Shown here piece by piece: positions 3,047-31,533 of a stretch of DNA of 64,000 bases (positions are counted from its first letter, which is position 1; the number at the start of each line of letters is the position of its first letter). Origin of the DNA: Spirochaetia bacterium (GTDB lineage: Bacteria; Spirochaetota; Spirochaetia; UBA9216); contig OY776510.1 of assembly GCA_963675665.1 (NCBI GenBank), positions 3,520,001 to 3,584,000 on the forward strand, read 5' to 3'. Below the pieces are notes generated by a model. That model saw only the letters and a program-made list of their open reading frames with translations, was not told the DNA's origin and searched no databases. A program made the position numbers and the translations under genes.

Positions 3047-3955
3047 TTAGTTGAGTCCGACAACTCTGGCCGAATCTCTAACACTTTCATAATACATCAT
3101 CTCAAACTCTTTTGGGGGAATATTTCCAATCGGTTCAAGAATTCTTCGGTTGTTAAACCAGTCCACCCATTTCAGAGTTTCATATTCTACTTCATCTATA
3201 GATTTCCAGGGACCTTTTCTCCAGATCACCTCCGCTTTATATAAACCGTTTATTGTTTCCGCCATTGCATTATCATATGAATCTCCAACACTTCCGACAG
3301 AAGGTTCAATGCCTTCTTCAGCCAATCTCTCAGAATATTTGATAGACAGGTACTGGCTGCCGCGGTCGCTGTGATGAATCAATTTATCTTCCGGCGCTCG
3401 AGCAAAGATTGCCTGCTCCAAAGCATCCAGAGTTAGTTCGGCACTCATTGATCGCGATACGCGCCAACCGACGATCATCCGTGAAAACACATCTGTTACA
3501 AAGGCTACATATACAAATCCTCGCCAGGTTGCCACGTAGGTGAAATCTGCAATCCATAACTCGTTCGGCCGGGTAGATTTGAATTCCCGATTTACTAAAT
3601 CCAACGGCCTGTCTGTTTTCTTATCAGGAATCGTCGTTTTAATACCCTTGCCGCGAATAACTCCTCTAAGACCAAGATCCTTCATGAGTCGAGCTACAGT
3701 GCATCTTGCGACATTAAAACCCTCACGCTTCAGTTGTCTCCAGACTTTTCGGACTCCGTAAACTTTGTAGTTATCATCCCAGACACGCTTAACTTCCGAC
3801 TTCAATTTTTTATCAGAGTGATAGCGTGCAGGAGCCTTACTTGGATCTTTTTCTCTGGATTTCATTTCGTAATAAAAAGACGGAGCAATCGGTATTACTT
3901 TACAGATTGACTCGACTCCATAATCTTCTCTATTTTTATCAATGAAATTAATCAT
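3047..3955 (-). CDS. IS3 transposase OrfB (rve DDE integrase core)
   Basis: [17 protein letters not shown] and [12 protein letters not shown] motifs. Confidence 0.95.
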
Positions 3956-4275
3956 TTCCTCTGTGGGCGGTCGAGCTCCGCCTGTGCGAAATATGCTGAA
4001 GCCTTTCTGAGTATCTCGTTAGCTTTTCTTAATTCCCTGACTTCTCGCTCCAGTTCTTTAATTCTGGTTTTCTCATCAATAGTCAGACCTTCTCGCTTTT
4101 CTGAATCCATTTCCGCTTGACGAACCCATCGGCGCAATGTTTCCGGGGTGCAGCCAATCTTGTTTGCTATTGATTCTATGGCTCCCCATTGGGAGCCGTG
4201 CTATTCAGTAGTCTCAAATACCAACCGTACTGAACGTTCTTTTACTTCTTTTGAATACCGGGTTCTTTTGTCCAT
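3952..4275 (-). pseudogene. IS3 transposase OrfA with a nonsense mutation
   Basis: [52 protein letters not shown]; TAG at 4201-4203 (codon 25). Confidence 0.85.
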
Positions 4276-4326
4276 AACATAATCCTCTCATATAATTATG
4301 TCTCTGGTAAACCCGGGGCGGTTCAA

Positions 4327-4652
4327 CCATCAGAACAGGAATATGATGGAGATTTTGTAGAGTTTGCGTATCCGATAAATTACAGGAAGCGGTTCGTAAA
4401 TAATCGAGGCTTTATCAGTTTTAATGGAACACGCTATTTTGTCGGGAATCCATTTGGAGGATACAATATAGGAGTTCAGCAGAATGAAGAAGGGCAACTA
4501 AATGTCTGGTTTGGAGACTCTCTTCTTGGATATTTTAACCAGGAAAGTTTGTTGCTGGTGCCTGAAAAGCAGTATACACTAATGAAAAGAAAAAGGAGAA
4601 AAGTGTTACCGATGTCGTGACACAAATCCGTTACCTATGTCGTGAAACCGGA
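4327..4652 (+). pseudogene. 3' remnant of an IS481-family transposase and its right end
   Basis: Open frame PSEQEYDG...RFVNNRGFISFNGTRYFVG...KVLPMS* (TGA 4618-4620), overlapped and followed by tandem GTTACC.ATGTCGTGA repeats typical of IS481 ends. Confidence 0.7.
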
Positions 4653-4693
4653 CCCCGCTGTCGCCTTCCATGGCTCATTAGAAAGAATTAAGA

Positions 4694-4728
4694 TTGATAA
4701 AACTTAAAAGGTGTTGTACAATGTACGT
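4694..4728 (+). promoter_or_regulatory. Promoter/operator of the VapC-Phd cassette
   Basis: TTGATA-17bp-TACAAT, overlapping TGTACA/TGTACG Phd-type palindromes; ATG 6 nt after the -10. Confidence 0.6.
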
Positions 4729-5121
4729 ATGAGTATATTGGTAGATGCAAACATATATTTAGCAGTAATTCTCGATGAGCCGGAAAAAAGCAAAATAATA
4801 GAATTAACTCAGGAAGATGATCTGATATCACCGGTTGTTTTACCTTTCGAAGTGGGAAACGCACTATCTGCAATGTATAAAAGAAATAGGTTAGATAAAA
4901 GTCAAATAATTGATTGTTATTCAATATTTCAGAAAATACCAGTGCGTTTGATTGATGTTAATATTCAAAACTCATTAGTAATAGCAGCAGATTATGGAAT
5001 ATATGCTTACGATGCATATTATTTGGAGATAGCAAAACGATACAAATGCAGTTTGTTGAGTTTGGATAATAGAATGAAAGAAGTGGCTAAAGATTTAGGA
5101 GTCCACTTATTGGAGGTCTGA
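4729..5121 (+). CDS. vapC: PIN-domain VapC toxin
   Basis: ILVDANIYL...FEVGNAL...YAYDAYYL...LLSLD acidic PIN motifs. Confidence 0.9.
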   Translation: MSILVDANIYLAVILDEPEKSKIIELTQEDDLISPVVLPFEVGNALSAMYKRNRLDKSQIIDCYSIFQKIPVRLIDVNIQNSLVIAADYGIYAYDAYYLEIAKRYKCSLLSLDNRMKEVAKDLGVHLLEV

Positions 5122-5346
5122 ATGAGAGTTTTTAATTATTCAGAAGCTAGGCAGAATTTTGCTTCAATATTGAATATGGCAGCAGAAGAAGATGTCATAA
5201 TAGCAAAGAAAGATGGAAGCAGATTTAAGATTGTACCGCTTACTAAAAATGAAAGTAAATCCCCATTTGACGTTCCAGGAATTAAAAGTAAAGTTACAAC
5301 CAAAGAAATCCTTGATGTTATTAGAGAAACTCGAGAGTTATCGTAG
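5122..5346 (+). CDS. Phd/YefM-family antitoxin (downstream of its toxin)
   Basis: MRVFNYSEARQNFASILNMA...VII Phd N-terminal motif; GGAGG SD. Confidence 0.85.
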   Translation: MRVFNYSEARQNFASILNMAAEEDVIIAKKDGSRFKIVPLTKNESKSPFDVPGIKSKVTTKEILDVIRETRELS

Positions 5347-5367
5347 AGAAGAAAGCCGTAATACTTC

Positions 5368-5462
5368 AGATAACAGGGGCTATGTGCTTCGTCGCTATGC
5401 GCTCCTCGGGCTGCGCCACATACGGCATTCGCCGTACGTCGTATATCCGCGGAACGTTAGAC
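5368..5462 (+). repeat. attC site (main family)
   Basis: AGATAAC AGGGGCTATGTG...GGAAC GTTAGAC; near-identical to 1685-1779. Confidence 0.9.
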
Positions 5463-5496
5463 GAAAGATATAAAGGTCGACGGGCTTGAATGAGAT

Positions 5497-6306
5497 ATGA
5501 ATATTGAAAAGGTTTTAAGGAATTATATAAAAATAGAGAATAGAGTTATCCATTCGGGTGAACAGTTTGTTATAATTACATTATGTTTAATACTGGTATT
5601 TTCATGTAACAAAAAGATAGAAAGCAGAAATAATGAATTATTAAAAGTATTGTTTATAGGAAATAGCTACACATTCAATAATAACCTTCCCGATCAAGTT
5701 AAAAAAAATATTTACTGATCAAAACAAGGCTATTTCTATTGAGATAAAATCATTTACTCCCGGTGGAGCAAGACTCCAAGATCATCTAAATTCTATTTTC
5801 ACTTTGGATACAATAAGAAATGGAAATTGGGATATAATAATTATACAAGGGCATAGCTTGGGCCTCTAAATAATCCTATTGGTTTTAAGGATGCTGCTTT
5901 AACTCTCATAAAAATCGCTAAAGATAGTGGTGCTGAAGTCTATTTATTTGAAACATGGTCTCGTGCTTTGGGTGAACCAGAGTACAGTGAAGAATGGTCA
6001 GGGCGAAATCATGCTGCAATGCAGAAACTCATCAGCAAAAAATATACTGATATTGCAATAGTCACTGATGCAATAGTTATTCCGATAGGGAGAATATGGC
6101 AAAGACTAAGGATAGAGATCCCAAAAATTGAATTATATTCAACAGACGGTTCTCATCCTACACCCTGTGGAAGTTATTTGGCGGCTTGTGTTATTTATAA
6201 ATATCTGTTCGATGAAGATCCTACTGACATTAAATACTATCCAAATGGAATAAAGAAATCTGATGCTAAGAAATTACGGGCTGCTGCTGAAAATATTATT
6301 CTTTAA
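5497..6306 (+). pseudogene. SGNH/GDSL hydrolase lipoprotein with two frameshifts
   Basis: VLFIGNSYT block I, then TPGGARLQDH...WDIIIIQGHS in a second frame, then ETWSRA...DGSHPT; shifts at the A8 run (5701-5708) and the G run (~5860). Confidence 0.8.
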
Positions 6307-6559
6307 CGAAAAAGAAATAAGTTTGGAGAATATTATGACCGAGATACTATATACGATTAATATTTAATTTCCTTAGAGATGGAAAAAACTTATTGTCCAG
6401 GCATGTGAAAAAAATATGAAGATGAAAATGATTCATTGTAGCTGGTTGAAGAGTGATGGTTTTAAGCAGATAGTCAGTTATAAAAAGGGGTGCTATAATA
6501 ATCAAAGAAACCAGACCTTGACATCGCCGTGCGGTCTGTTTGAAGAGCCAAAACTCTTG

Positions 6560-6636
6560 CTATAACAGGGGCTATGTGCTCAGCCCATTCGGCCTTCGGG
6601 CTGCGCCGAACGTCGTGTAACCCTGGAACGATAGGA
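6560..6636 (+). repeat. attC site with a damaged R' (TT missing)
   Basis: CTATAAC AGGGGCTATGTG...TAACCCTGGAAC G--ATAGGAAC. Confidence 0.8.
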
Positions 6637-6660
6637 ACTAGTTTTTAAGAGATTATTACG

Positions 6661-7155
6661 ATGAAAGAGAAGTACCAAATCCAAATAGCCGATAAGAATG
6701 ACCAAGAATTTCTTTATGAGATGCTTTACCAATCAATTTATGTAGAGCCAGATTCACCGAAACCTGATAGACAAATAATTGATATTCCAGAAATATCAAA
6801 ATATGTCGCAAACTGGGGAAAGCAAGGAGATTACGCTTTAATTGCTTTAGATGAAAATGGAACTAAAATAGGTGCAGTTTGGCTCCGATACTTTGATGTA
6901 AATAACAAGGGATATGGATTCATTAACGATCAGATACCTGAGATAGGTATCGCTGTAGAAGAAAAGAGCCGTGGGAATGGTATTGGGTCATTCTTATTAA
7001 ATGAAATATTGAAAAGAACGAAAAATGAAATAGAATCAATTTCATTAAGTGTTCAACCGAATAATCCAGCAATGGATTTATATTCTCGATTCGGTTTCTA
7101 TGAATGTGGAAAAGAAGGGGACTCTGTAATAATGAGATATGATAACGAGGCATGA
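6661..7155 (+). CDS. GNAT N-acetyltransferase
   Basis: IAVEEKSRGNGIG AcCoA motif; NPAMDLYSRFGF. Confidence 0.9.
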   Translation: MKEKYQIQIADKNDQEFLYEMLYQSIYVEPDSPKPDRQIIDIPEISKYVANWGKQGDYALIALDENGTKIGAVWLRYFDVNNKGYGFINDQIPEIGIAVEEKSRGNGIGSFLLNEILKRTKNEIESISLSVQPNNPAMDLYSRFGFYECGKEGDSVIMRYDNEA

Positions 7156-7165
7156 AAACTACTTC

Positions 7166-7281
7166 CTATAACAGTGAGTATATGCTACGTTCGGCTATCG
7201 CGCCTCACTTGGGCTGCGCCACATTTTTTCTTTTTCCTGCTCCGCTTCGCCCGCTTATCGGGAAAAGAAAAAACGTTATAT
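7166..7281 (+). repeat. attC site apparently lacking its L' arm
   Basis: CTATAAC AGTGAGTATATGC...GGGCTGCGCCACATTTTTTC...GAAAAAAC GTTATAT; no complement to GAGTATATGC before R'. Confidence 0.75.
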
Positions 7282-7302
7282 GCAATGCATAACGAGAAAG
7301 AA

Positions 7303-7800
7303 ATGATTGTATTAGAAAAATTTGAAAAAGATAACATTCCCCAATTACTATCTTGGCTTGAAGACACGGATGCAAAATTCCTTTTACAGTTTGCTGGACC
7401 CATATATTTATTCCCATTGAATGAAAAACAACTCATGGAAACTTTGGATTCAAAAGATTATTTATTGCTTCGGGCAATCGATACCAAAGCCGGGAATATA
7501 ATCGGTCATTGCCAATTTATGAGAGTTGATAAAAATAAACAACAAGCATCCATTGGTAGAATCCTTATTAATCCTAATTTCAGAGGGAAAGGATTTGGAG
7601 TACAACTCATAAATGAAATGAAAATCTTTGCCAAAGATAAATTAAATCTATTGAAGATTGATTTACGTGTTTTTGATTTCAACACTGCAGCTTTACATTG
7701 TTATTCTAAAGCTGGGTTTGTTAAAACCTCTGTACATGAAAACCATATTCCTGAGTTCAATGAAACTTGGAAAATTATTACAATGGAATGTTCTCTCTGA
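7303..7800 (+). CDS. GNAT (RimJ/RimL-like) acetyltransferase
   Basis: RILINPNFRGKGFG, LRVFDFNTAALHCYSKAGF; start moved downstream of the attC. Confidence 0.85.
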   Translation: MIVLEKFEKDNIPQLLSWLEDTDAKFLLQFAGPIYLFPLNEKQLMETLDSKDYLLLRAIDTKAGNIIGHCQFMRVDKNKQQASIGRILINPNFRGKGFGVQLINEMKIFAKDKLNLLKIDLRVFDFNTAALHCYSKAGFVKTSVHENHIPEFNETWKIITMECSL

Positions 7801-7824
7801 CCCTCTATTCTCGTTGGTCAATGA

Positions 7825-7971
7825 ATCTAACAAGCGAATATGCGGTTCCGATTCGCTCCACTCAAATTGCTTCTTTGATAATCTCTGATAAAAGTATGCT
7901 ATACTTTTCCCAGATATTATTAAGCTCTCAAGTGGCCGAAGCACCTTCGCATATTCCGCAGAACGTTATAT
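7825..7971 (+). repeat. attC site
   Basis: ATCTAAC AAGCGAATATGCG...CGCATATTCCGCAGAAC GTTATAT. Confidence 0.85.
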
Positions 7972-8080
7972 GACATATTCTTGAGATGGATATAATATAC
8001 AGAAAATAAAAGAGGAGTACTTAATGTCTACAATATTATTTGATTTCTTTAGATAAACATAAAAATATAAGGAGTCAATA

Positions 8081-8827
8081 TTGTCGTATTTTAATTTTCA
8101 AGGAAAGAAAATATTTTATTCAGTTAAAGGAGAAGGTCCTCTTCTGATAGTTTTACCAGGTAACACAGCTACATCTGCTGCACATGAGCATGAGTTAAAT
8201 TATTTTTCAGATAAGTATTGCACTGTTTCCCTAGATTTTCTGGGAACTGGAAAATCAGACAGAATGAAGCAATGGGATAGCGGTTGGTGGGAAGCCTGTA
8301 GTAACCAAGTTAAAGCATTAGTTGAGCATCTTAATTATAAAGAGGCGATTCTTCTTGGCATAAGTGGCGGTGCTATTATAGCAATTTCTGCCGCTATAAA
8401 TCATTCTGAATATGTTAAAGCAGTTGTTGCAGATAGCTTTTCATTGCATTTTACGGAAGAAATGTATAAAAACAATGTCTTAAATGAAAGATCTAATTTA
8501 TCTGAAGAACAACAAATGTTCTGGTCATCAATGCATGGTTCAGATTGGAAAGATGTTATAACTGCTGATACAGAAATGATTGGAATGGTTGTTAAGGAAG
8601 GAGGATCTTGTATCAAGAGCCAACCAGAAAAGATAAAATGTCCTGTTTTGCTGACATATTCAGAAGAAGATAGTTTTCTTCCAAATGTAAAAGAAATTGC
8701 TGCAGATTTAGAAAAGAAGATTAGCAATTGTGAGATTAAAATATTTTCAAATGGAGATCATCCTCTAATTTGGACAAATCCTACGGATTTTTTTCAATCC
8801 GTTGATAGATTTCTATTAAAAATATAA
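8081..8827 (+). CDS. Alpha/beta hydrolase
   Basis: DFLGTGKS; GISGG nucleophile elbow; C-terminal GDH; AAGGAG SD. Confidence 0.9.
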   Translation: MSYFNFQGKKIFYSVKGEGPLLIVLPGNTATSAAHEHELNYFSDKYCTVSLDFLGTGKSDRMKQWDSGWWEACSNQVKALVEHLNYKEAILLGISGGAIIAISAAINHSEYVKAVVADSFSLHFTEEMYKNNVLNERSNLSEEQQMFWSSMHGSDWKDVITADTEMIGMVVKEGGSCIKSQPEKIKCPVLLTYSEEDSFLPNVKEIAADLEKKISNCEIKIFSNGDHPLIWTNPTDFFQSVDRFLLKI

Positions 8828-8879
8828 AGAAAATTTGTGGGCTATTTCGATGGCCCGCATTCAATAACAAGAATAAGTC

Positions 8880-8925
8880 ACATAACAGCGTGGATCAAGG
8901 GCCTTGCCGTCCCTGGCAAGGATAA
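8880..8925 (+). repeat. Truncated attC (R'' and part of left arm)
   Basis: CAAGAATAAGTCACATAAC complements the cassette start GTTATATGACATATTCTTG; no R' follows. Confidence 0.65.
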
Positions 8926-8967
8926 AGAAAAGTCGACAAAACGCACACATTGTAATAATTTACTATT

Positions 8968-9057
8968 ATGAAGCTTTTTGATTGGGATGAAAAGAAGAAT
9001 TCAGAATTAAGAAAAACGCGTGATATAAACGGAAGATTGGTTGAATCAAGCAGATAA
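8968..9057 (+). pseudogene. N-terminal remnant of a BrnT-like toxin
   Basis: MKLFDWDEKKNSELRKTRDI resembles the BrnT FxWDxxKN start; truncated at the attC. Confidence 0.65.
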
Positions 9058-9145
9058 CAGGGGCTATTTGCATCGTCGCTATGCGCTCCTCGGGCTGTGC
9101 CACATACGGTTGCGCCGTACGTCACATAACCTCGGAACGTTATGC
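9052..9145 (+). repeat. attC site (main family)
   Basis: AGATAAC AGGGGCTATTTG...CACATAACCTCGGAAC GTTATGC. Confidence 0.9.
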
Positions 9146-9197
9146 GAAATCTCGAACCTAAAAAAAGAAGATGCTTGCCATCCTTTGCAAGCAAAGA

Positions 9198-9229
9198 TTG
9201 ACGGAGTGTAGTAATTACTATATAATTAC
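9198..9229 (+). promoter_or_regulatory. Promoter/operator of the MazEF cassette
   Basis: TTGACG-17bp-TATAAT with overlapping TAGTAATTACTA palindrome. Confidence 0.7.
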
Positions 9230-9246
9230 TTTAGTTGAGGTATAAT

Positions 9247-9495
9247 ATGTTAATTTCAGTGGTTCCTATAGGCAATTCAAAAGGAATTCGGATTCCTAAG
9301 AGCATTTTGCAGCAATTAAATATTGAAGAAAAAGTCGAATTGGAAGTTCATAATACAGAAATATTGATACGGCCAATTAAGAAAAAGCCGAGAGAAGGAT
9401 GGTCCGAAGAGTTTATGAAAATGCATCAAAATGGTGATGATTCTTCACTTGTGGACAATTTAACAGGTCAGGATGATTTTGAATGGGAATGGTAA
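9247..9495 (+). CDS. mazE: AbrB/MazE-family antitoxin
   Basis: IGNSKGIRIPK...ILIRP...PREGW motif. Confidence 0.9.
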   Translation: MLISVVPIGNSKGIRIPKSILQQLNIEEKVELEVHNTEILIRPIKKKPREGWSEEFMKMHQNGDDSSLVDNLTGQDDFEWEW

Positions 9496-9812
9496 TCCAT
9501 CAATACGAAGTGTATTTGATAAACTTGGATCCGACTGTTGGTCATGAAATAAAAAAGACAAGACCTTGTTTAGTTATTTCACCAAACGAGATGAATGAAT
9601 CGATCCAGACTATTATAATCGCTCCAATGACAACGAAATCACATCCATATCCAACTCGAGTACCAATTAAATTTGAAAAGAAAGATGGATGGATTGTTTT
9701 AGATCAATTAAGAACAATTGATAGAAAGAGATTAATTAAAAAAATTGGAAAGATAAATAAAAAAGAAGTTGAACTCGTCAAGAATGTACTCCAGGAAATG
9801 TTAATAGATTAA
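9489..9812 (+). CDS. mazF: PemK/MazF endoribonuclease toxin
   Basis: NLDPTVGHEIKKTRPCLVISP...DQLRTIDRKRL. Confidence 0.92.
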   Translation: MVIHQYEVYLINLDPTVGHEIKKTRPCLVISPNEMNESIQTIIIAPMTTKSHPYPTRVPIKFEKKDGWIVLDQLRTIDRKRLIKKIGKINKKEVELVKNVLQEMLID

Positions 9813-9861
9813 AGCCAATCAACATCCTTGTTGCTTGGCTTTGAAGAAGGTTTGTGACTAC

Positions 9862-9949
9862 GCATAAAACAGCAGAATATGAGGCTCCAGCCATTCTGCT
9901 GTCGCCTAAATCGACTATGTCGACTTCGCATATTCGCGGAGTGTTATAT
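9862..9949 (+). repeat. attC site with a 2-nt insertion in R''
   Basis: GCATAAAAC (instead of GCATAAC) AGCAGAATATG...CATATTCGCGGAGT GTTATAT. Confidence 0.75.
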
Positions 9950-10108
9950 GAAAATTACTGGGACATCAAATAATAATAGGTGTATATTTGTTGCGTACGG
10001 ATAAGCGTACGGGGATGTGGAATGAGTAGTATAAATGTAACAAATGCCAGAAAAGATCTTTACAATTTAGTACAAAGGGTAAATTCAACGTAAGCGGTAA
10101 TTCTTACC

Positions 10109-11662
10109 CTATGCCTTAATCAGCCCAGGAGTCAGGTTGAACGGAAGCAGTGCTTCATAATCAGCCGGTGTTTTGCAATTTGGAAGCTGTCTGAAAACGT
10201 AGTAGAAATAATCATAGACCGAGAGGTTCTGCATTTTAGCTGATTCAACAAGGCTGTACAAAATTGCTGAAGATTCGGCGCCGTGTTCTGTATCGGAAAA
10301 CAACCAATTCTTCCTGCCGATCACAAAAGGCCGGATTGCGTTTTCGGCAATGTTGTTAGACGACGTAAGCAGCGGGTCTTCCAAATACAAGTTTAACTGC
10401 TTCCAATTATCCAGCGTATAGGCAATAGCTTTCCCGAAGGCAAGTGTAGGCGGCGTTGCCGCTGCATATTGTGTCAGTAATTCAAATAAGGATTTCAGAA
10501 TCGGAGAAGCCCTGTTCGTCCGTTGTTTTTGAAACCCTTTCTTAGAAAAATCAGCTCTTAAATCTTCAAGCTCAAAAAGTTTCTTAATCAATTCGAGTAT
10601 CTGTTTTGCATCCGGAGATTTAGACAGCTCCCAATACTTGTAGAAATATCTACGGGCATGAGCCCAGCACAAAACATGACGAATAGATTTATTTCCTTCA
10701 TCGCTTAGTTTTTTCAATGCAGTGTGATAAGCCTCATAATCATCAGTCTGCAGCCAGCCGGAATATTCTTGCAGGAAATCATACGGAACTTTATGAGAGC
10801 GGCTTGTTTCATACTGAAACACAACAGATTTTTTATCAGTCTCTCCACCAAGAAATACCCACATCCAGGATTTATCCTGTGCTTTACGACCTTTTTCTTT
10901 CAAAACCTGCACCCGGGTTTCATCAGCATTGATTACTGGACCGTTTTTAATATTATCTTTAAGCAGCTCATATAGCGGCTTGCATCTTTCAGCGCATTTA
11001 ATTGCCAATGTGCTCAGTGTTGCACGTGGAATATCCGCACCTATCGCATTCAACCTCTTACTCTGTCGATAAAACGGCAGCGCATATTCAAACTTCTCAT
11101 TTATAATCCATGCAAGCAGGCTTTCATCGGCAATACTTCCGGAAATGAGGTGTTTAATCCCTTCTGCTGTCTGTACTCCGGATGAATCATCAGTTGTTCC
11201 TTCACAATTTCGGCAGACATATTTTTTCTTTATCTCACGTCTGACGACTACTTTCGCAGGAACGATGCAGAGTCGTTCAGATACATCTTCACCTATACAA
11301 ACCTTCTCGGTACCACAGGCACAGGTTTTATCTTCTTCATCGATATCGTATTCAACAATCTCGCGAGGCAGGTCTTCAGAAAGCGCTTTTCTTCCCGAGT
11401 TCTTTCGAACTGTTTTTGTGTGGGCTTTTACTTCAAGGGTTTCTGATTCTATTTCATCCTGCTGCTCAAATGCGGAATCTTCTGCTTCGTTGAAAAGGGA
11501 CGCCTGCTTCTTATCTTCACTGGTAAATTTCTCAGATTTTGTTCCGAAGTGAAGAGTCTGCAGGAGGTGTACCAGTTCTTTCAATTCGGTAATCTGATTA
11601 TCCTGATTTTGGACTGTTTGTTTGAGTTGAGCAATTTCGTTAAGCAAGGCTTCAGTACTCAC
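10109..11662 (-). CDS. tnpC: IS66 transposase TnpC
   Basis: Leucine zipper, zinc finger, ADETRVQVL, CWAHARRYF, NNIAENAIRPFVIGRKNWLF. Confidence 0.95.
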   Translation of the reverse strand: MSTEALLNEIAQLKQTVQNQDNQITELKELVHLLQTLHFGTKSEKFTSEDKKQASLFNEAEDSAFEQQDEIESETLEVKAHTKTVRKNSGRKALSEDLPREIVEYDIDEEDKTCACGTEKVCIGEDVSERLCIVPAKVVVRREIKKKYVCRNCEGTTDDSSGVQTAEGIKHLISGSIADESLLAWIINEKFEYALPFYRQSKRLNAIGADIPRATLSTLAIKCAERCKPLYELLKDNIKNGPVINADETRVQVLKEKGRKAQDKSWMWVFLGGETDKKSVVFQYETSRSHKVPYDFLQEYSGWLQTDDYEAYHTALKKLSDEGNKSIRHVLCWAHARRYFYKYWELSKSPDAKQILELIKKLFELEDLRADFSKKGFQKQRTNRASPILKSLFELLTQYAAATPPTLAFGKAIAYTLDNWKQLNLYLEDPLLTSSNNIAENAIRPFVIGRKNWLFSDTEHGAESSAILYSLVESAKMQNLSVYDYFYYVFRQLPNCKTPADYEALLPFNLTPGLIKA

Positions 11663-11700
11663 ATAAGAATTTTACCACGGTTAAATTCGAGTGTGAAGCC

Positions 11701-12045
11701 CTAAACGCGGGAATAATTTAATTGCTTATGCGCTTTAAAGAAATCTATTCCATCAAGCAGCATCTTCAACTCTTCGAACTTTATCTCCCTCGCGTCTTCT
11801 TCCGTTTCCGGCCAGGGGAACTTATTCTTTTCAAGTCTTTTCTGCCAAAGACAGAATCCGTTCCGATCCCAGTAAACGATTTTAAGCAGCTTTCTTTTGC
11901 CGTTGCAGAATAGAAACAGACTTTTTGAGAACGGGTCGTTCTGCATTATATTCTGAATCTGCAGGCTCAGACCGTTCACACCTTTTCGTAAATCAGTTTT
12001 CCCGGGTCTGACGAAGTAACGGTATTCTGAGTAATCGATAATCAT
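11701..12045 (-). CDS. tnpB: IS66 accessory protein TnpB
   Basis: TDLRKGVNGL...LKIVYWDRNGFCLWQKRLE. Confidence 0.95.
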   Translation of the reverse strand: MIIDYSEYRYFVRPGKTDLRKGVNGLSLQIQNIMQNDPFSKSLFLFCNGKRKLLKIVYWDRNGFCLWQKRLEKNKFPWPETEEDAREIKFEELKMLLDGIDFFKAHKQLNYSRV

Positions 12046-18179: not shown

Positions 18180-18368
18180 CATTAGTTTGACAGTTGACAT
18201 TAAAATTGATTAAATGTACCATTTCTTCAGGTAAAAATCTAATTCCTGTAAAAACCATTTTATTCCAGCCACACTGATTATTCATATTTTTTTCAATTAT
18301 TCCCCGGCAATTACATTATTATTTTTATCCACTGAAATTTAAATTTTATATCAATGTTGGAGGTTTCA

Positions 18369-19388
18369 ATGAAAAGAACAAAAAATGACGATTCTGCAAA
18401 CATAATGCAATTACTCACTTCGGCCTGGATAACCCAACCTTTATATGTTGTAACAAAATTGGGAATCCCTGATATATTGGCTGAAGAATCGAAATCGCTT
18501 GAAGAGCTTGCCGACAAAACAAATTCATATGCTCCCTTTCTTTACAGAATTATGAGAGCTTTGTCATCAGCAGGCTTTTTTTATGAAAATGAAGATCATG
18601 TTTTTACAGTTAGTTCCATGGGAGAATTGCTGCAAAAAGATAAAATGCAGCCTGTTGTATTAATGTTTCTGTCAGAATGGCATAATAATGCCTGGAATAA
18701 ATTATTACAGAGTGTCCAAACAGGTAAAATCGCATTTGATATTGCATTTGGAAAAAATAGTTTTGAATGGCTGATGGAATATCGTGAGGAAGCGGATATT
18801 TTTAATAAGGCTAACCACATAAAGGCAGTATCAAGCCATACTGAAATAACAGAGGTTTATGATTTTTCCAAAATTAAAACGGTTGCTGATATTGGCGGCG
18901 GTTACGGAGGCCTGTTATTTCATATATTGAATATGAACTCTCATATCAGCGGTATTGTTGCCGATTTAACATATATACAGAAAACTGTACAAAATGAAAT
19001 ACTAAAGAATGAACTTGGTGATCGCTGTTCTTTTATGGAATGTGATTTTTTTGAAAAAGTTCCTGCCGGCAGTGACTGCTATATTCTATCCAATATTCTG
19101 CATGATTGGGATGATAATAGATGTCAGGCAATTATCAGCAATTGTTGTGATGCAATGCACTCAGAATCAAAATTGCTGATAGTTGAATCATTAATCCCGG
19201 CAGGAAATGAGTTTTCTATTGTTAAATTATTGGATCTTGAAGTTCTGGTTATGGGCGGTGGCAAGGAAAGAACAGAATTGGAATTCAGAGATTTATTAAA
19301 TAATACTGATCTAATTCTAAACAGAATAATTCCTACCAAAGAAAATATATCAATATTGGAATGTTCAAGGGATATATTTTCAATATAG
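18369..19388 (+). CDS. O-methyltransferase (Methyltransf_2 with dimerisation domain)
   Basis: ADIGGGYG, DFF, LSNILHDWDD, GGKERT. Confidence 0.92.
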   Translation: MKRTKNDDSANIMQLLTSAWITQPLYVVTKLGIPDILAEESKSLEELADKTNSYAPFLYRIMRALSSAGFFYENEDHVFTVSSMGELLQKDKMQPVVLMFLSEWHNNAWNKLLQSVQTGKIAFDIAFGKNSFEWLMEYREEADIFNKANHIKAVSSHTEITEVYDFSKIKTVADIGGGYGGLLFHILNMNSHISGIVADLTYIQKTVQNEILKNELGDRCSFMECDFFEKVPAGSDCYILSNILHDWDDNRCQAIISNCCDAMHSESKLLIVESLIPAGNEFSIVKLLDLEVLVMGGGKERTELEFRDLLNNTDLILNRIIPTKENISILECSRDIFSI

Positions 19389-26551: not shown

Positions 26552-27280
26552 ATGATTGAATTAAAAAAAATTCAGCTTACATTAGGCGGTAAAAAAGTAT
26601 TAGCTGATATCAATGCAAAAGCGTCAGCAGGTGAACTCACTTTATTATCAGGCGATAACGGAACCGGCAAAACTTCATTATTTAACCTGATTGCAGGCAT
26701 ACTGAAGCCTGATTCCGGTGAATTATATTATAAATCAGAATTCCTTGACTGTGAAACAGCTGCTTTCAGCAACCTCCTGAGTTTTATACAGGACGACGGA
26801 GGCACGATTCCTCTTCTTACGGTTGAAGAACAACTGCAACTTCAGTGTTATTTAAATAATCTGAATAAGATTGAAACTGTCGCAAGAGTAAATGAAATTA
26901 TAATGAATCTCGACCTTGAAAGTCATCGAAATTACAGGGCGGAAGAATTATCTGCAGGAGTGCGAAAAAAACTGGGCATTGCTATTGGTATGATCTGTAA
27001 TTCGGAAATTTTCCTGTTGGATGAGCCTTTTGCCTCGCTTGATATTAAAGCATCATTAAAATTACTGAATATCCTTAAAATACTTAAAAAAAGGGGACGT
27101 ATTGTAATAGTTACCACTCATTCGCCCGATATTCTGTCGAAAATAATTGATCGCATCTGGCTTCTTTCCGATGGAATAATTCAGGAAGAAACCGACCGTG
27201 ATAAAATCAAAAATATTCTCAGTATTAAACCTGATAATCAGGAGCATAATTCGGATAAACAATTATCATGGATAAAATGA
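26552..27280 (+). CDS. ABC transporter ATP-binding protein
   Basis: GDNGTGKT, LSAG, LLDEP, TTH. Confidence 0.9.
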   Translation: MIELKKIQLTLGGKKVLADINAKASAGELTLLSGDNGTGKTSLFNLIAGILKPDSGELYYKSEFLDCETAAFSNLLSFIQDDGGTIPLLTVEEQLQLQCYLNNLNKIETVARVNEIIMNLDLESHRNYRAEELSAGVRKKLGIAIGMICNSEIFLLDEPFASLDIKASLKLLNILKILKKRGRIVIVTTHSPDILSKIIDRIWLLSDGIIQEETDRDKIKNILSIKPDNQEHNSDKQLSWIK

Positions 27281-28338
27281 AAGAAATATCAAAACTGCTC
27301 TATACAAGAAGCCTGCATAGAATGTTCGGAAATCCGACTGTAGGAACCCTTACCGGTTTTCTGACAATGATTTATATTATCAGGGCTTCTGTAAACCTGT
27401 ATTTTGTGAATCTGATTTCCGGCGGTGACGCCTGTATGGAATCCGGTCAGATAGCTGCCGGATGGTTTCTTTATTTAGGCACATATTTTATTATCTGCAG
27501 CAGTCTTTCAGCCTTTCATATCAGTTTTGCTCTTCCAAAACGATGCTTTATCTGTTTAACACCAGAAGGAAAACGATTCAGATCCGGTTTTTTAAAACAT
27601 GCAGCCTTTATACGCCCTATGAATCTGGTTGTTGCTGTTTTGGCCGTAGCAGGATTATTTATATTCTGCGGGTTGAAACCAGGGTTTAAAATAATTTTAA
27701 CCGGTATACTTATTCTTACAGTATCTGTGGTCATATCATTTTTTATTTTCAGATTAACTGAAATTATGGATATCGGCATGATGGAAGTACAGTTTATTGA
27801 AGCAGTAATGCTGTCTTTACTGGTACTGATTAACCCTGATGTAATAAATTCAGGCGGAATTGTTAGATTCCTGATCTTTGGAAAATTTATTCCGTTTAAT
27901 TCGGCGGCTATAATAATTTTAAGTTTTATTTTTGTTACTTTTATAACAATCACTCTACTGATACTTACAAAAATTATCAGCATTTTAAATGCAAAATTCC
28001 ATGATTTAAAATTACATACCGGTCCGCTTGAAAGCTGGCATCTTCATTTCTTTAAAATTACGTACTGGCTTGTTCTTTACCTGTTTATTTTCTCTGTACT
28101 GCTTTCCGATTTTGTTTCAGCCTCTGTCAAACAAAAAATTACTGCGGGGTTTTTAATTTTTAACCTGATTTCATATATTGTCTTTATTATTCATTGTGAA
28201 AACGTTATTAGAACAAAATTCAGAAAAAAACTGCTCACAGGAGAACATATACTTCTTACTGCAAGCACGTTTTTATCACATATTTTAATGACATTTATAC
28301 CGGTTTTAACCGTATCTATTATAAAAACTTTCAGTTGA
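27277..28338 (+). CDS. Polytopic membrane protein (probable ABC permease)
   Basis: About 9 hydrophobic segments; ATGA overlap with the ABC ATPase. Confidence 0.75.
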   Translation: MKEISKLLYTRSLHRMFGNPTVGTLTGFLTMIYIIRASVNLYFVNLISGGDACMESGQIAAGWFLYLGTYFIICSSLSAFHISFALPKRCFICLTPEGKRFRSGFLKHAAFIRPMNLVVAVLAVAGLFIFCGLKPGFKIILTGILILTVSVVISFFIFRLTEIMDIGMMEVQFIEAVMLSLLVLINPDVINSGGIVRFLIFGKFIPFNSAAIIILSFIFVTFITITLLILTKIISILNAKFHDLKLHTGPLESWHLHFFKITYWLVLYLFIFSVLLSDFVSASVKQKITAGFLIFNLISYIVFIIHCENVIRTKFRKKLLTGEHILLTASTFLSHILMTFIPVLTVSIIKTFS

Positions 28339-28355
28339 TACAGACTCTTCCGGTT

Positions 28356-28550
28356 TTATTCTCCAAGTTTGTCTATATCTATTTTTTTAACATCTATTAC
28401 TGTTTTATCTGCCTGGTTTTCTTCTTTCTGCTCGACCGAACAGGTGCTTTTCGGACTCATTCAAGTATGAACCCCGAACTTTGGAAGAACCCATCTTTGC
28501 AGAACAACCCATCCCGCAATAAACAAAATCATCAATACTGTGTCATTCAT
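28356..28550 (-). CDS. Candidate small membrane selenoprotein (64 aa, UGA at codon 30)
   Basis: GAGG SD; MNDTVLMILFIAGWVVLQRWVLPKFGVHT-(UGA)-MSPKSTCSVEQKEENQADKTVIDVKKIDIDKLGE*; SECIS-like hairpin 3' of the UGA. Confidence 0.6.
28428..28443 (-). promoter_or_regulatory. Putative bacterial SECIS hairpin
   Basis: CUGUUC-GGUC-GAGCAG; loop starts 23 nt after the UGA and shares the GGUC core of the E. coli fdhF SECIS loop. Confidence 0.5.
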
Positions 28551-28684
28551 GGTGTTACCTCTATATTAGATTAGCTTTATATTGCATTTTGGTCAATATA
28601 TCTGATTATTTTACTCAAATGTATTTCACTTATAATTTTATAGGTATTATCTTATATACAGACATTAAAAAATAAGGAGTTAAT

Positions 28685-29188
28685 ATGTCAGAAATAACCC
28701 TGGAAGGAAAAATAATTCATACTATTGGGAATTTACCGACGGTTGGCGAAGCTGCGCCGGATTTTACTCTTGTTTCTACTGATTTGTCAGAAGTCAGGCT
28801 GAATGACTTTAAAGGGAAAAAACTGATTTTGAATATTTTTCCCAGCCTTGATACATCAGTCTGTGCAACATCAGTAAGAAAATTCAATCAGGAACTCAAT
28901 AATCTTTCGGATACTGAAGTTCTCTGCATATCCGCGGATCTTCCTTTTGCACACAGCCGTTTTTGTGTGAGTGAAGGCCTGGAAAATGTTAAAAACGCTT
29001 CTGTTTTCAGAAATCCGGGTTTCGGTAAAAATTACGGAGTGACAATTACCGACAGTCCGCTGGAAGGGCTTCTTTCGAGAGCAGTTGTAGTTATTGACGG
29101 CAAAGGCAGGATTGTTTATACCGAGCAAGTGCCTGAAATAGCACAGGAACCCGACTATAAATCAGCTTTAGAAGCGGTTAAAAAGTAA
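28685..29188 (+). CDS. tpx: Thiol peroxidase
   Basis: FPSLDTSVC, ISADLPFAHSRFC, EPDY. Confidence 0.95.
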   Translation: MSEITLEGKIIHTIGNLPTVGEAAPDFTLVSTDLSEVRLNDFKGKKLILNIFPSLDTSVCATSVRKFNQELNNLSDTEVLCISADLPFAHSRFCVSEGLENVKNASVFRNPGFGKNYGVTITDSPLEGLLSRAVVVIDGKGRIVYTEQVPEIAQEPDYKSALEAVKK

Positions 29189-29265: not shown

Positions 29266-31506
29266 TCAGCTGCACCTTGAATAACCGCAGTTAAAACATG
29301 TAATGCAGCCGTCAGCATATGTCAGTTGCTGATTGCACTCCGGGCATATTCCGTCCGATGTTATTACTTCTTCACCGTCATGTATATATTTCTTCAAGAC
29401 ACGGGCAACACTGCGTTCAAAATCTGTAAAGTTTGTATCTTTCTGCAGCTGGGTTATTACAAACTGCAAAGGCGTTCCGTGACGCAGCGCCATTGAGATG
29501 AAACGCGCAAGTGAAGAATTCGGCGAATCGAATTCTTTTGTAAAATTTTTAAGCCTTATTTCTTCTTCACCATTAATAAACACCAGATCATAACGGCCGG
29601 AAGGTTCTTTTCTTACAACAGTACGATGATCAGTTTCAATATCTATCCTTGATTCCGGGTCATCAATAACGAAAAGTTCATAAAGGCTGTTTTTCATTTT
29701 CCCGACAATCACTATGATGCTTTTTCGGCCTGCTTTGACTCTGTGAATATCACACGGCAGTTCTTTCGGCCTTGTAGGCGCATGATGAGTGTGTATTGGC
29801 TCTTCCTTGTCCTTGTTCTGATATTCAAGGATACCTTTCATGCTTCCGTTTGGATTGAATGTGGTAAATCCTTTAAGTCCCCTGTCGTATGCATACATAA
29901 ACAGGTTCTTGTAATCATCAAAACTTGTATCTTCAGGCAAATTCAGTGTTTTGGAAATACTGTGATCAATGTATTTCTGAAAAGAAGCCTGGATATCGAT
30001 TGAGTCGTACGGATCTATATTCTGAGTGGTTACAAAATATTCAGGCGCATCGTCTTTCCCGGTAATCTCACGGTATAATCCGTAAGCATAGTCATGGACT
30101 TCCTCGGTTACTGTTTCATCACCTATACCAGTGCGGATAGTTCTGTTGTACTTCAGGGCAAAAATCGGTTCTATGCCGGATGAACAATTCTGTCCCGCCG
30201 AAAGTGAAGTTGTACCGGTAGGCGCAATTGTATTCATCTGTACATTGCGTATTCCGTTTTTTGATATCAGCAGACGGACCTGTTCAGGAAGCTGTCTGAC
30301 AAATTCAGCAGCTAAATATTTTTCTTTATCAAACTGCTCAAAGGCGCCTTTTTCCGCTGCAATCCCGGCTGATGCAGTATATGATTCGTTTCTTAAAGTC
30401 AGCGCAATTTCTTCAGAGAATTCTTTTGATTCATTTGAACCGTACTTTATACCCAGCATTGTAAACATATCGCCAAGACCGGTTATTCCGAGCCCGATTC
30501 GCCGCCACTGTTTTGAAAACTTTTTTATTTTTTCAATAGGATAATCGGTGACATCAAGTATATTATCCAGAAACCTGATACCGACATTTACCGTGGAAGC
30601 GAATTTTCTAAAATCAAATGAAGCCTCCGGTGTAAAAGGGTTATCCACAAACATGGTTAAATTCACAGCAGAAAGACAGCACAACGAGTAGGGCGGCATA
30701 ACAAGTTCACCGCATGGATTAACCCTGTCCATCTTAAACGCCCAGTACCCGTTGTTGTATCTTTCTACAGTATCTGCGTAGAATATTCCGGGCTCATTAT
30801 GGTTATAGGCATTCCTGGCAAGCAGATCATAAAGATACCTGGCTTTTACCGTTTTATATACTTTGTCTCCAAAAATAAGGTTCCAGTCTTCATCATTTCT
30901 TACAGCTTCAATAAAATTGTCTGTTACCTTTATTGATATATTGAACTGGGTCAGCTCCTTGTTGTCATCGCCTTTTTTTACCGTAATAAAATCTTCAATC
31001 TCTGGATGCGAAATATCGAGCAATGCAATATGCGCCGATCTGCGCTGCCCCCCGGTCATTATTGTTTTCGCTGACTGATCAAAAATCTTCAGAAAAGATA
31101 TTACTCCCGATGATTCGGAACCGCTGGATAGCGGCGCCCCTTTGGGGCGCAGTTTTGAAATATCAAAACCGACTCCGCCGCCCATTTTACTGATGGCGGC
31201 ATCTTCCTTAAGAGATTCATATATTCCTTCCATTGAATCTTCTATATCGATTGTAAAACAGTTATTATAATTCTTCATTCTGCTTTCGGGTCTTGCATTG
31301 GCAAGAATTCTGCCTGCAGGAATCAGTCTTCCGTTTAACAGTTCCTCAAAAAAAAACTCGCTCCACTGTTCCTTTTTTTCTTCAACTGAAGCTGCTTCCT
31401 CCGCTATCAACCGGAAAACCTCCTCGGGACTGTTTTCTCCATGAAGGCAGTATTTGGCTTCAAATATTTCACGGCTTATTTTCTGTTTCCATTTCCATTT
31501 TTGCAT
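29266..31506 (-). CDS. nrdJ: Ribonucleotide reductase, class II (B12-dependent) type
   Basis: PAGRILAN, NCF, GGGVG, NPCGE, IAPTGT, SSGIEP, C-terminal Zn ribbon; no beta subunit nearby; GGGAGG SD. Confidence 0.85.
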   Translation of the reverse strand: MQKWKWKQKISREIFEAKYCLHGENSPEEVFRLIAEEAASVEEKKEQWSEFFFEELLNGRLIPAGRILANARPESRMKNYNNCFTIDIEDSMEGIYESLKEDAAISKMGGGVGFDISKLRPKGAPLSSGSESSGVISFLKIFDQSAKTIMTGGQRRSAHIALLDISHPEIEDFITVKKGDDNKELTQFNISIKVTDNFIEAVRNDEDWNLIFGDKVYKTVKARYLYDLLARNAYNHNEPGIFYADTVERYNNGYWAFKMDRVNPCGELVMPPYSLCCLSAVNLTMFVDNPFTPEASFDFRKFASTVNVGIRFLDNILDVTDYPIEKIKKFSKQWRRIGLGITGLGDMFTMLGIKYGSNESKEFSEEIALTLRNESYTASAGIAAEKGAFEQFDKEKYLAAEFVRQLPEQVRLLISKNGIRNVQMNTIAPTGTTSLSAGQNCSSGIEPIFALKYNRTIRTGIGDETVTEEVHDYAYGLYREITGKDDAPEYFVTTQNIDPYDSIDIQASFQKYIDHSISKTLNLPEDTSFDDYKNLFMYAYDRGLKGFTTFNPNGSMKGILEYQNKDKEEPIHTHHAPTRPKELPCDIHRVKAGRKSIIVIVGKMKNSLYELFVIDDPESRIDIETDHRTVVRKEPSGRYDLVFINGEEEIRLKNFTKEFDSPNSSLARFISMALRHGTPLQFVITQLQKDTNFTDFERSVARVLKKYIHDGEEVITSDGICPECNQQLTYADGCITCFNCGYSRCS

Positions 31507-31517
31507 CGATCCTCCCA

Positions 31518-31533
31518 ACACTATATATAGCGC
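31518..31533. promoter_or_regulatory. NrdR box
   Basis: ACACTATATATAGCGC fits acaCwAtATaTwGtgt; immediately upstream of the nrdJ SD. Confidence 0.75.

Follow-up and report, generated by a model that had tools for sequence, protein, structure and literature searches.

Does the TGA at codon 30 of a small spirochaete gene end a membrane peptide, or does it encode selenocysteine (Sec)? The gene in question lies at positions 28550-28356 on the minus strand of a 64,000-nucleotide stretch from a Spirochaetia bacterium (lineage UBA9216; assembly GCA_963675665.1, contig OY776510.1, positions 3,520,001 to 3,584,000), which we call the window. A first-pass annotation had described a GAGG Shine–Dalgarno sequence, an open reading frame (ORF) with an in-frame UGA, 34 further codons, a TAA stop and a hairpin, and had proposed a small membrane selenoprotein. 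Every detail of this layout proved correct when we read the sequence again. We establish here that this is a real gene, that its TGA is a sense codon under selection, and that recoding signals are present. The selenoprotein reading is supported by the Sec machinery of the genome, a column of TGA or Cys shared with homologues, conservation past the TGA and a covarying hairpin, and we consider it very probable that the gene encodes Sec within a 64-residue product. All features of the small gene are on the minus strand, with coordinates quoted as plus-strand positions; the last line gives a neighbouring gene.

28558..28561, minus: Shine–Dalgarno sequence GAGG, 7 nucleotides (nt) 5' of the ATG
28548..28550, minus: start codon ATG, the first start past an in-frame TAG 5 codons upstream, aligned with the starts of homologues
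28479..28547, minus: predicted N-terminal transmembrane helix, residues 2-24 (AlphaFold2 and Kyte-Doolittle)
28464..28490, minus: juxtamembrane motif W-x-L-P-(K/R)-x-G-x-x-T, residues 21-29, preceded by W20 (50-sequence alignment)
28461..28463, minus: in-frame TGA, very probably read as selenocysteine, residue 30 (conserved TGA/Cys column)
28440..28442, minus: Cys37 codon TGT, proposed partner of Sec30 in a U-x6-C motif (invariant in alignments A1 and A3)
28428..28443, minus: hairpin of the bacterial selenocysteine insertion sequence (bSECIS) type, with 5' arm 28443-28438, loop GGUC 28437-28434 and 3' arm 28433-28428
28359..28439, minus: charged, probably disordered C-terminal tail, residues 38-64 (predicted local distance difference test, pLDDT, 49-64)
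28356..28358, minus: stop codon TAA (from the sequence)
28685..29188, plus: tpx (thiol peroxidase; NCBIfam thiol peroxidase, 245.6 bits), divergent neighbour, context and not part of the gene

The first part of the frame, MNDTVLMILFIAGWVVLQRWVLPKFGVHT, comprises 29 codons including the ATG and encodes the hydrophobic helix up to the TGA; the second part, MSPKSTCSVEQKEENQADKTVIDVKKIDIDKLGE, comprises the 34 open codons between the TGA and the TAA. With the TGA included, the product has 64 residues. The seven closest homologues also carry (A/T)GAGG or AGGAG at the equivalent place upstream.

Conservation of the TGA codon

The Sec machinery on which the first-pass annotation had made its proposal depend is present in this genome: selA (474.6 bits) with selB (308.1 bits) adjoining, selD (358.8 bits) and a tRNA-Sec with the anticodon TCA (68 bits). 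The genome also contains grdA with an in-frame TGA in C-F-V-U, the classical C-x-x-U setting, and grdB with an in-frame TGA in U-G-T-C-T-R-C, the classical U-x-x-C-x-x-C setting. Since TGA is the terminator of 15 of the 54 long ORFs in the window, we can exclude a reassigned genetic code in which this codon specifies Trp or Gly.

To the source genome we added 60 relatives (61 genomes; match cut-off E ≤ 3.5e-4). Eight of the 61 genomes match, each with one TGA, and this TGA stands in the identical column in all eight (8/8), followed by a conserved x-x-C-S-V-E. Four of the other five congeneric genomes contain the small gene, and the one in which it was not found is 81% complete. When the 64-residue protein alone served as the query, one locus was returned, in a metagenome-assembled genome (MAG) of Thermodesulfobacteriota, and a word-indexed protein search with that query gave no candidate. 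We then used alignment A3 (50 sequences) as a family profile in two phylum samples. In the Spirochaetota sample, 56 of 401 genomes contain a match, and 63 of the 65 matches carry the TGA; in the Thermodesulfobacteriota sample, 137 of 301 genomes do, and 137 of the 143 matches carry it, the other six ending at profile position 28-29, before the TGA codon, and hence being uninformative. The 65 family genes that we extracted comprise 63 TGA forms and two TGC forms (L054 and L067). The layout at the window is more than chance: with the TGA at the same codon, it recurs in 7 of the 60 relatives as well as in a further 55 Spirochaetota and 137 Thermodesulfobacteriota genomes.

Within Spirochaetota, selA was found in 117 of the 401 genomes overall vs 55 of the 56 genomes with the small protein. 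The sole carrier without selA, G382 (84% complete), has a TGC (Cys) form, and all 54 genomes with a TGA form have selA (54/54), although relatives among them are not independent. The Thermodesulfobacteriota MAG that holds L053 also has selA. The two Cys forms in Spirochaetota are L054 (G382) and L067 (G218). L054, in the genome without a selA match, retains a hairpin of 10 bp (-16 kcal/mol) whose UGGAAC loop has the spacing of a selenocysteine insertion sequence (SECIS), and looks like a recent switch from Sec to Cys with a fossil SECIS; L067 has a hairpin at the equivalent place with a loop that is not G-first. Two family copies, both with TGA, occur in nine Spirochaetota genomes (e.g., G403, G418, G421) and in six Thermodesulfobacteriota genomes (e.g., G511, G705). 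In the orthologues L026, L062, L064, L069, L072 and L074 the terminator of the ORF is itself TGA, and one short mRNA would there use UGA first as Sec and then, 15-35 codons apart, as a stop.

When 1.84 billion representative proteins were searched with the profile, 419 matched at E ≤ 0.001, and we classified the best 150. Position 30 is Cys in 106 of these 150, and 87 of the 102 Cys forms caught by a pattern contain C-x4-C, typically as C-M-S-G-A-C (in general C-M-S-G-x-C). A further 24 of the 150 end exactly at residue 29, and one (P0074) is the 34-residue second half called as an ORF of its own. Position 30 is Trp in 12 and Gly in one; in these cases the TGA has probably been translated under another genetic code. 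One more of the 150 is an unrelated repeat protein. This pattern at position 30 is the classical signature of a Sec/Cys pair. Homologues with TGA or Cys at position 30, which the earlier annotation had named as support for its proposal, were found in the relatives, in both phylum samples and among the profile matches.

The protein is conserved on both sides of this codon. All 50 sequences of A3 have P23, G26, Sec/Cys at position 30 and the second Cys; W20, L22 and T29 are at least 90% conserved, and S32 is nearly invariant. In alignment A1 the residues S32, C37, S38, V39 and E40 are invariant, and overall the N-terminal 37 residues are strongly conserved at the protein level. For five members of the genus, the ratio of nonsynonymous to synonymous differences (pN/pS) is 0.34 for codons 2-29 vs 0.30 for all codons past the TGA, and 0.36 past the hairpin. 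The conservation beyond the TGA that the first-pass annotation had asked about is therefore present, both as the invariant residues of A1 and as the downstream pN/pS of 0.30. The U-x6-C motif of that annotation is peculiar to the source genus; across the family the usual motif is U/C-x4-C, and three relatives have x5.

The hairpin downstream of the TGA

The bSECIS consensus, as given in the portion of PMC13188914 that we drew on, consists of a loop of 3-9 nt with G (usually G[G/U]) in its first two positions, an upper stem of 4-16 bp, a UGA-to-loop distance of 16-37 nt and a minimum free energy (MFE) of ≤ -7.5 kcal/mol. We scripted these rules (PMC13188914) and used 4000 random TGAs of the source genome and 1890 shuffles as controls. 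The hairpin of the window, CUGUUC-GGUC-GAGCAG, has a 6-bp stem, and its loop starts 23 nt past the TGA. Its GGUC loop, stem and spacing are within the published ranges. At -7.5 kcal/mol, 43 of 63 family TGAs pass vs 102 of the 4000 random TGAs (2.6%) and 42 of the 1890 shuffles (2.2%); at -5 kcal/mol the corresponding numbers are 60 of 63 vs 278 of 4000 (7.0%) and 116 of 1890 (6.1%). A second seed gave similar pass rates for the controls.

The 60 family hairpins include 52 distinct stem-loops, with 4-6 pair types at every stem position, a UGA-to-loop spacing of 17-24 nt, and loops that keep G[G/U] (GGA, GGUC, UGGAU, UGGAC, GUC and alike). RNAalifold and pair counts on simple alignments agree with this covariation. 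The residues encoded by the stem vary by lineage (S-V-E-Q, S-Q-D-E-N, A-V-D-R-R, E-I-G-D-R, R-I-E-D-Q); since they differ between lineages, the pairing is kept by the RNA and not by the protein. As to the conserved SECIS that the first-pass annotation had named as support, the hairpin is both conserved and covarying across the family.

Codon usage adds to this picture. In the eight closest sequences the loop codons are frozen (TCG 8/8, GTC 8/8), while TCG makes up 17% of Ser codons and GTC 18% of Val codons genome-wide, and invariant residues outside the hairpin use 3-4 codons in the same sequences. Among the five genus members, synonymous divergence is lower in the hairpin region (0.50 vs ~0.70 elsewhere), as expected if RNA structure adds constraint. 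A search of positions 28200-28750 against Rfam at E ≤ 10 returned three chance-level rows only and no SECIS family.

Protein design, neighbourhoods and possible function

AlphaFold2 (A3, 50 sequences; mean pLDDT 66) predicts a single helix at residues 2-24 with a pLDDT of ~89, followed by a tail with a pLDDT of 49-64, and the Kyte-Doolittle 15-residue mean peaks at 2.27 for residues 4-18. Across 228 family members the first five residues carry mean charges of +0.5/-0.86 and the stretch after the helix +1.26/-0.04. According to the positive-inside rule, the basic flank of a membrane helix faces the cytoplasm. Because the N-terminus is net acidic and the stretch after the helix net basic, we place the N-terminus outside and, by prediction, the Sec/Cys pair at the cytoplasmic face with the charged tail in the cytoplasm. 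The tail pattern K-x-V-I-E-V-K-K-I-D-x-D is kept within the genus. In lipoprotein signals, a basic n-region precedes an unbroken hydrophobic core, and the lipobox has a small residue at -1. We rejected such a signal peptide with Cys/Sec at +1 in view of the acidic N-terminus, the Arg, Lys and Pro residues before position 30 and the Thr at -1. A likeness of the helix to the N-termini of ATP synthase subunit b (E 0.02-0.25) was rejected as not significant. When the A3 search was limited to longer proteins, no match reached E ≤ 0.001; this argues weakly against fusions. One family member of 208 residues (P0108) continues, with no intervening stop, into a thioredoxin domain (Pfam Thioredoxin, 3.2e-26); because this thioredoxin part seems to be out of frame at its far end, P0108 may be adjacency plus a sequencing error instead of a true fusion.

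We propose the following mode of action. SelB and tRNA-Sec would read UGA 28463-28461 as selenocysteine, with the hairpin 23 nt downstream acting as the bSECIS. The product would span the membrane with one N-terminal helix, its short acidic N-terminus probably facing outward, and would present the Sec30...Cys37 pair at the helix exit on the cytoplasmic side, ahead of the charged disordered tail. Sec30 could serve as the attacking nucleophile and Cys37 as the resolving residue in a cycle between selenol/thiol and selenenylsulfide. Such a membrane-tethered redox couple may act as a reductant or peroxide trap at the membrane surface, and the thioredoxin system would recycle it. For a thioredoxin-recycled, membrane-tethered Sec30/Cys37 selenenylsulfide couple we see the chances as roughly even.

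The gene neighbourhoods bear on this proposal. In the window, tpx and the small gene are divergent with a spacer of 134 nt, and tpx is the only one among 55 long ORFs that belongs to thiol-redox or peroxide families. The shared intergenic region with tpx, which the first-pass annotation had pointed out, is real at the window; as a conserved link it does not stand, since only two of the eight closest loci have it. In the genus, tpx lies in opposite orientation between a ribonucleotide reductase gene and the small gene in G000 and G003 (L020), while in G001 and G005 (L021, L022) the small gene is directly 3' of the ribonucleotide reductase gene on the same strand. In G004 it adjoins rubrerythrin. 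TrxB-like flavoproteins adjoin L062, L064, L077 and L078 (Spirochaetota), and thiol-redox neighbours occur in 6 of 28 Thermodesulfobacteriota loci. A thioredoxin gene ends 11 nt upstream of L093. AhpC-like genes stand upstream of L089 on the same strand and next to L094, peroxiredoxin and rubrerythrin genes upstream of L109, and genes for Redoxin and/or a CcdA-type DsbD_TM protein next to L104 and L105. Taken together, a gene for thiol redox or peroxide defence adjoins the family gene at ~13 of 65 loci, in at least seven arrangements, with the limit that closely related genomes share contexts. This link to function is suggestive, not decisive. 

Several points speak against the picture drawn so far. 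The window hairpin alone reaches -7.1 kcal/mol, 0.4 short of the -7.5 cut-off (63-nt MFE -7.7), and 20 of the 63 family members fail the strict SECIS rules as implemented. Position 30 is Arg in four (P0046, P0064, P0067, P0077) and Leu in one (P0082) of the best 150 profile matches; these forms may be real substitutions one base from TGA (CGA, TTA) or translation artefacts. The tail is under purifying selection within the genus and is unconserved family-wide, with a mean column identity of 26%. Because of this lack of conservation, a large part of the 34 post-Sec residues may be there mainly to carry the SECIS. The redox role is suggested by motif chemistry and by a loose neighbourhood signal from loci that are not independent. 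At most loci the neighbours are unrelated: Lon (seven loci, all Spirochaetota with the small gene downstream of lon), ribonucleotide reductase, DHFR/ThyA or O-methyltransferase (four), and metal-related regulators or handlers (ArsR, MerR, NikR, DUF364, FeoB) flank ~7 loci.

The last group of neighbours leads to an alternative that keeps the gene and its Sec recoding. Here, instead of acting as a redox couple, the Sec/Cys pair would be a ligand for soft metals or metalloids (Hg, Cu, Ni, As, Fe) in transport, sensing or detoxification, much as small Mer membrane proteins use their Cys pairs. L095 has an ArsR-type regulator that ends 7 nt upstream and L082 has a second one upstream, MerR-type regulators adjoin L099 and L113, NikR adjoins L106 and L111, DUF364/DUF4213 ("putative heavy-metal chelation") adjoins L106, and FeoB adjoins L105. 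A flexible C-x4-C beside the membrane could plausibly form a two-ligand site, and the selenoproteins catalogued in the consulted part of PMC13188914 include metal-handling examples such as a mercuric transport protein, a cation ATPase, a CopZ-like protein and MbdU. However, the conserved ligands number only two, and no transporter appears as a consistent partner. The regulators are ambiguous neighbours, since ArsR- and MerR-type proteins control redox genes too, and thiol-redox neighbours are at least as frequent, including the thioredoxin operon and the possible thioredoxin fusion P0108. We regard metal binding as the main rival of the redox couple, unlikely though worth keeping in mind.

We can be much firmer about the reading in which the TGA is a true stop, so that the gene encodes a 29-residue membrane peptide, possibly with a coupled ORF from the ATG after the TGA, and the hairpin is incidental or has another role. 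This reading draws on UGA-AUG being the commonest arrangement in the family, on gene callers that predict the 29-residue ORF (24 of the best 150) and once the 34-residue ORF (P0074), and on the weakness of the window hairpin. Yet uninterrupted Cys forms have the Met that follows the codon as part of the family motif C-M-S, and at least 12 TGA forms (L026, L068, L080, L083, L087, L093, L094, L097, L098, L099, L102, L109) have CTG, CTA, CTC, GGG, ATA, ATC, GTC, GCT or GCC as the next codon, which are not usual starts. Nor does a stop explain why TGA forms co-occur with selA in 54 of 54 Spirochaetota genomes while the selA-negative genome has TGC, or why the hairpin covaries and follows the SECIS rules for loop and spacing. 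This reading is very improbable. Finally, the least credible alternative is that the ORF is mainly a selenium-sensing leader whose UGA decoding vs termination regulates a neighbour such as tpx while the peptide itself is functionless: selenium-dependent control of transcription by translational uncoupling has been described for termite-gut Treponema (PMC3892789, in the part used here) and the tail is poorly conserved across the family, but the gene is as a rule monocistronic and frequently converges on the next one (the window stop lies 17 nt from the end of the convergent ORF), no downstream gene is consistent, Cys forms without UGA are the majority outside Sec users, and the N-terminal 37 residues are strongly conserved as protein.

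The remaining surroundings of the selenoprotein gene were recorded as follows. Family genes usually stand alone, often convergent with the next gene. At the window the convergent neighbour is a 356-residue polytopic membrane ORF (27268-28338, plus) that ends 17 nt from the small gene's stop and whose start is overlapped by an ATP-binding cassette (ABC) transporter ATPase (26552-27280, plus). This membrane ORF has no Pfam or NCBIfam family match and is probably an unclassified permease partner of the adjoining ATPase. A TG-n-TATA(A/T)A box stands at 28576-28586 (minus), ~25-35 nt 5' of the small gene's start, and at the matching position in L020, L021, L024, L025 and L026. It may be the extended -10 promoter of a short-leader transcript. 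A promoter/terminator scan did not call this box and found no sigma-70-like site upstream on the minus strand and no terminator. The ribonucleotide reductase gene at 29266-31521 (minus) ends in a Cys-rich C-x-x-C...C-x-x-C tail. An O-methyltransferase (Methyltransf_2 plus dimerisation domain) adjoins L085, L096, L101 and L107 in Thermodesulfobacteriota, three of them close relatives, and the window itself encodes an O-methyltransferase of the same type at a distance of 9 kb (18354-19385). Three FlaA genes are present in the genome, as expected of a spirochaete, and FlaA adjoins the family gene in one phylum-mate. The region 3050-12045 of the window is rich in mobile elements, with an rve integrase (3050-3955, minus), a PIN-domain ORF (4711-5118), a MazF/PemK-like ORF (9483-9809), and an IS66 transposase with a TnpB-like Orf2 (10112-12045, minus).

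Family status and meaning

The first-pass annotation had recognized no named family, and we found none either. At E ≤ 1, the window protein has no Pfam or NCBIfam match beyond chance-level rows. The same holds for 13 small Cys forms (a 14th scanned protein, P0108, matches via its thioredoxin part) and, against NCBIfam, for 27 further Sec forms. Membership in the YgaP-like/DUF2892 family was rejected, as the Pfam matches down to E ≤ 1 do not include PF11127. In public records the proteins are called "hypothetical protein" only, without a precomputed Pfam domain. The nearest ESM Atlas cluster (123 members, score 0.88) is likewise named "hypothetical protein" and provides no functional lead; Planctomycetota is the commonest phylum among its five members with known phylum.

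An inventory of May 2026, in the portion available to us, lists 119 prokaryotic selenoprotein families, each with a Pfam, NCBIfam, cd or PTHR identifier (PMC13188914). Table 1 of this source (119 families) contains no small single-pass membrane protein with U-x4-6-C. The family studied here matches no Pfam or NCBIfam model of a catalogued selenoprotein family, and the cd and PTHR entries are larger proteins of known folds. As far as the consulted parts of this inventory, of deep-Sep (PMC12013277), of BSepDB (PMC13326102) and of an Olavius symbiont study (PMC1976440) go, the family is uncatalogued, and it may be annotated elsewhere. We can describe it as a large, widespread and unnamed family, most members of which outside Sec-using lineages have C-x4-C.

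Comparison with known systems helps to place these proteins. The model case of an in-ORF bSECIS is E. coli fdhF. Like such canonical genes, the family has a UGA followed by an in-ORF hairpin with a G[G/U] loop (spacing here 17-24 nt), Cys homologues, and a genome with selA, selB, selC and selD. In contrast to them, the host is a microprotein of ~45-65 residues without known fold or family, its SECIS covers about a quarter of the post-Sec codons, and the window hairpin is at the weak end (-7.1 kcal/mol). With the thioredoxin-fold UxxC/CxxU selenoproteins (thioredoxin, glutaredoxin, peroxiredoxin, DsbA-like proteins and others), which are covered in the part of PMC13188914 consulted, it shares the replacement of Cys/Cys by Sec/Cys. 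In addition, neighbours of the small gene come from the thioredoxin/peroxiredoxin system, but only one helix and no thioredoxin fold is predicted, and the spacing is x4-x6 instead of x2. Small Cys-rich single-pass membrane proteins, such as the CD1871A/FeoB-associated Cys-rich family NF040920, also have an N-terminal helix followed at once by a short Cys motif. In contrast, the 42 members of the present family scanned here have no NCBIfam match at E ≤ 1, and their motif W-x-L-P-(K/R)-x-G-x-x-T-(U/C)-M-S is distinct.

The eukaryotic selenoproteins SELENOS and SELENOK are small proteins anchored by a single N-terminal membrane helix; their cytosolic tail is disordered, and their redox site is based on Sec. 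In SELENOS, a Cys...Sec selenenylsulfide is reduced by thioredoxin. Both have their Sec near the C-terminus, use a SECIS in the 3' untranslated region and reside in the endoplasmic reticulum, whereas the present family has its Sec at the membrane interface. The likeness lies in a possible working mode, not in family membership. The proposed couple would be an analogue of SELENOS and SELENOK in design, not in descent. We more tentatively suggest, at somewhat less than even chances, that the family is the bacterial functional counterpart of eukaryotic membrane-tethered selenoproteins: a minimal thioredoxin-recycled selenol/thiol couple at the inner membrane face that in anaerobes detoxifies lipid peroxides or repairs oxidised thiols of membrane proteins.

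There are few selenoproteins, and their chemistry is special; since the Sec codon resembles a stop, annotation misses them systematically. Here a whole family is affected, for which gene callers give a 29-residue stub or read the TGA as Trp. With a profile for the family, many genome annotations and selenoproteome counts could be corrected. Chemical synthesis of so small a product is feasible, so that a Sec/Cys role at the membrane interface is directly testable, and the abundant natural Sec/Cys pairs provide a clean system for studying the advantage of selenium over sulfur. The family occurs in about half of the sampled Thermodesulfobacteriota and one seventh of the sampled Spirochaetota genomes. 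It would thereby be among the most widespread selenoproteins still unannotated, and the published selenoproteome sizes for both phyla would be systematically too low.

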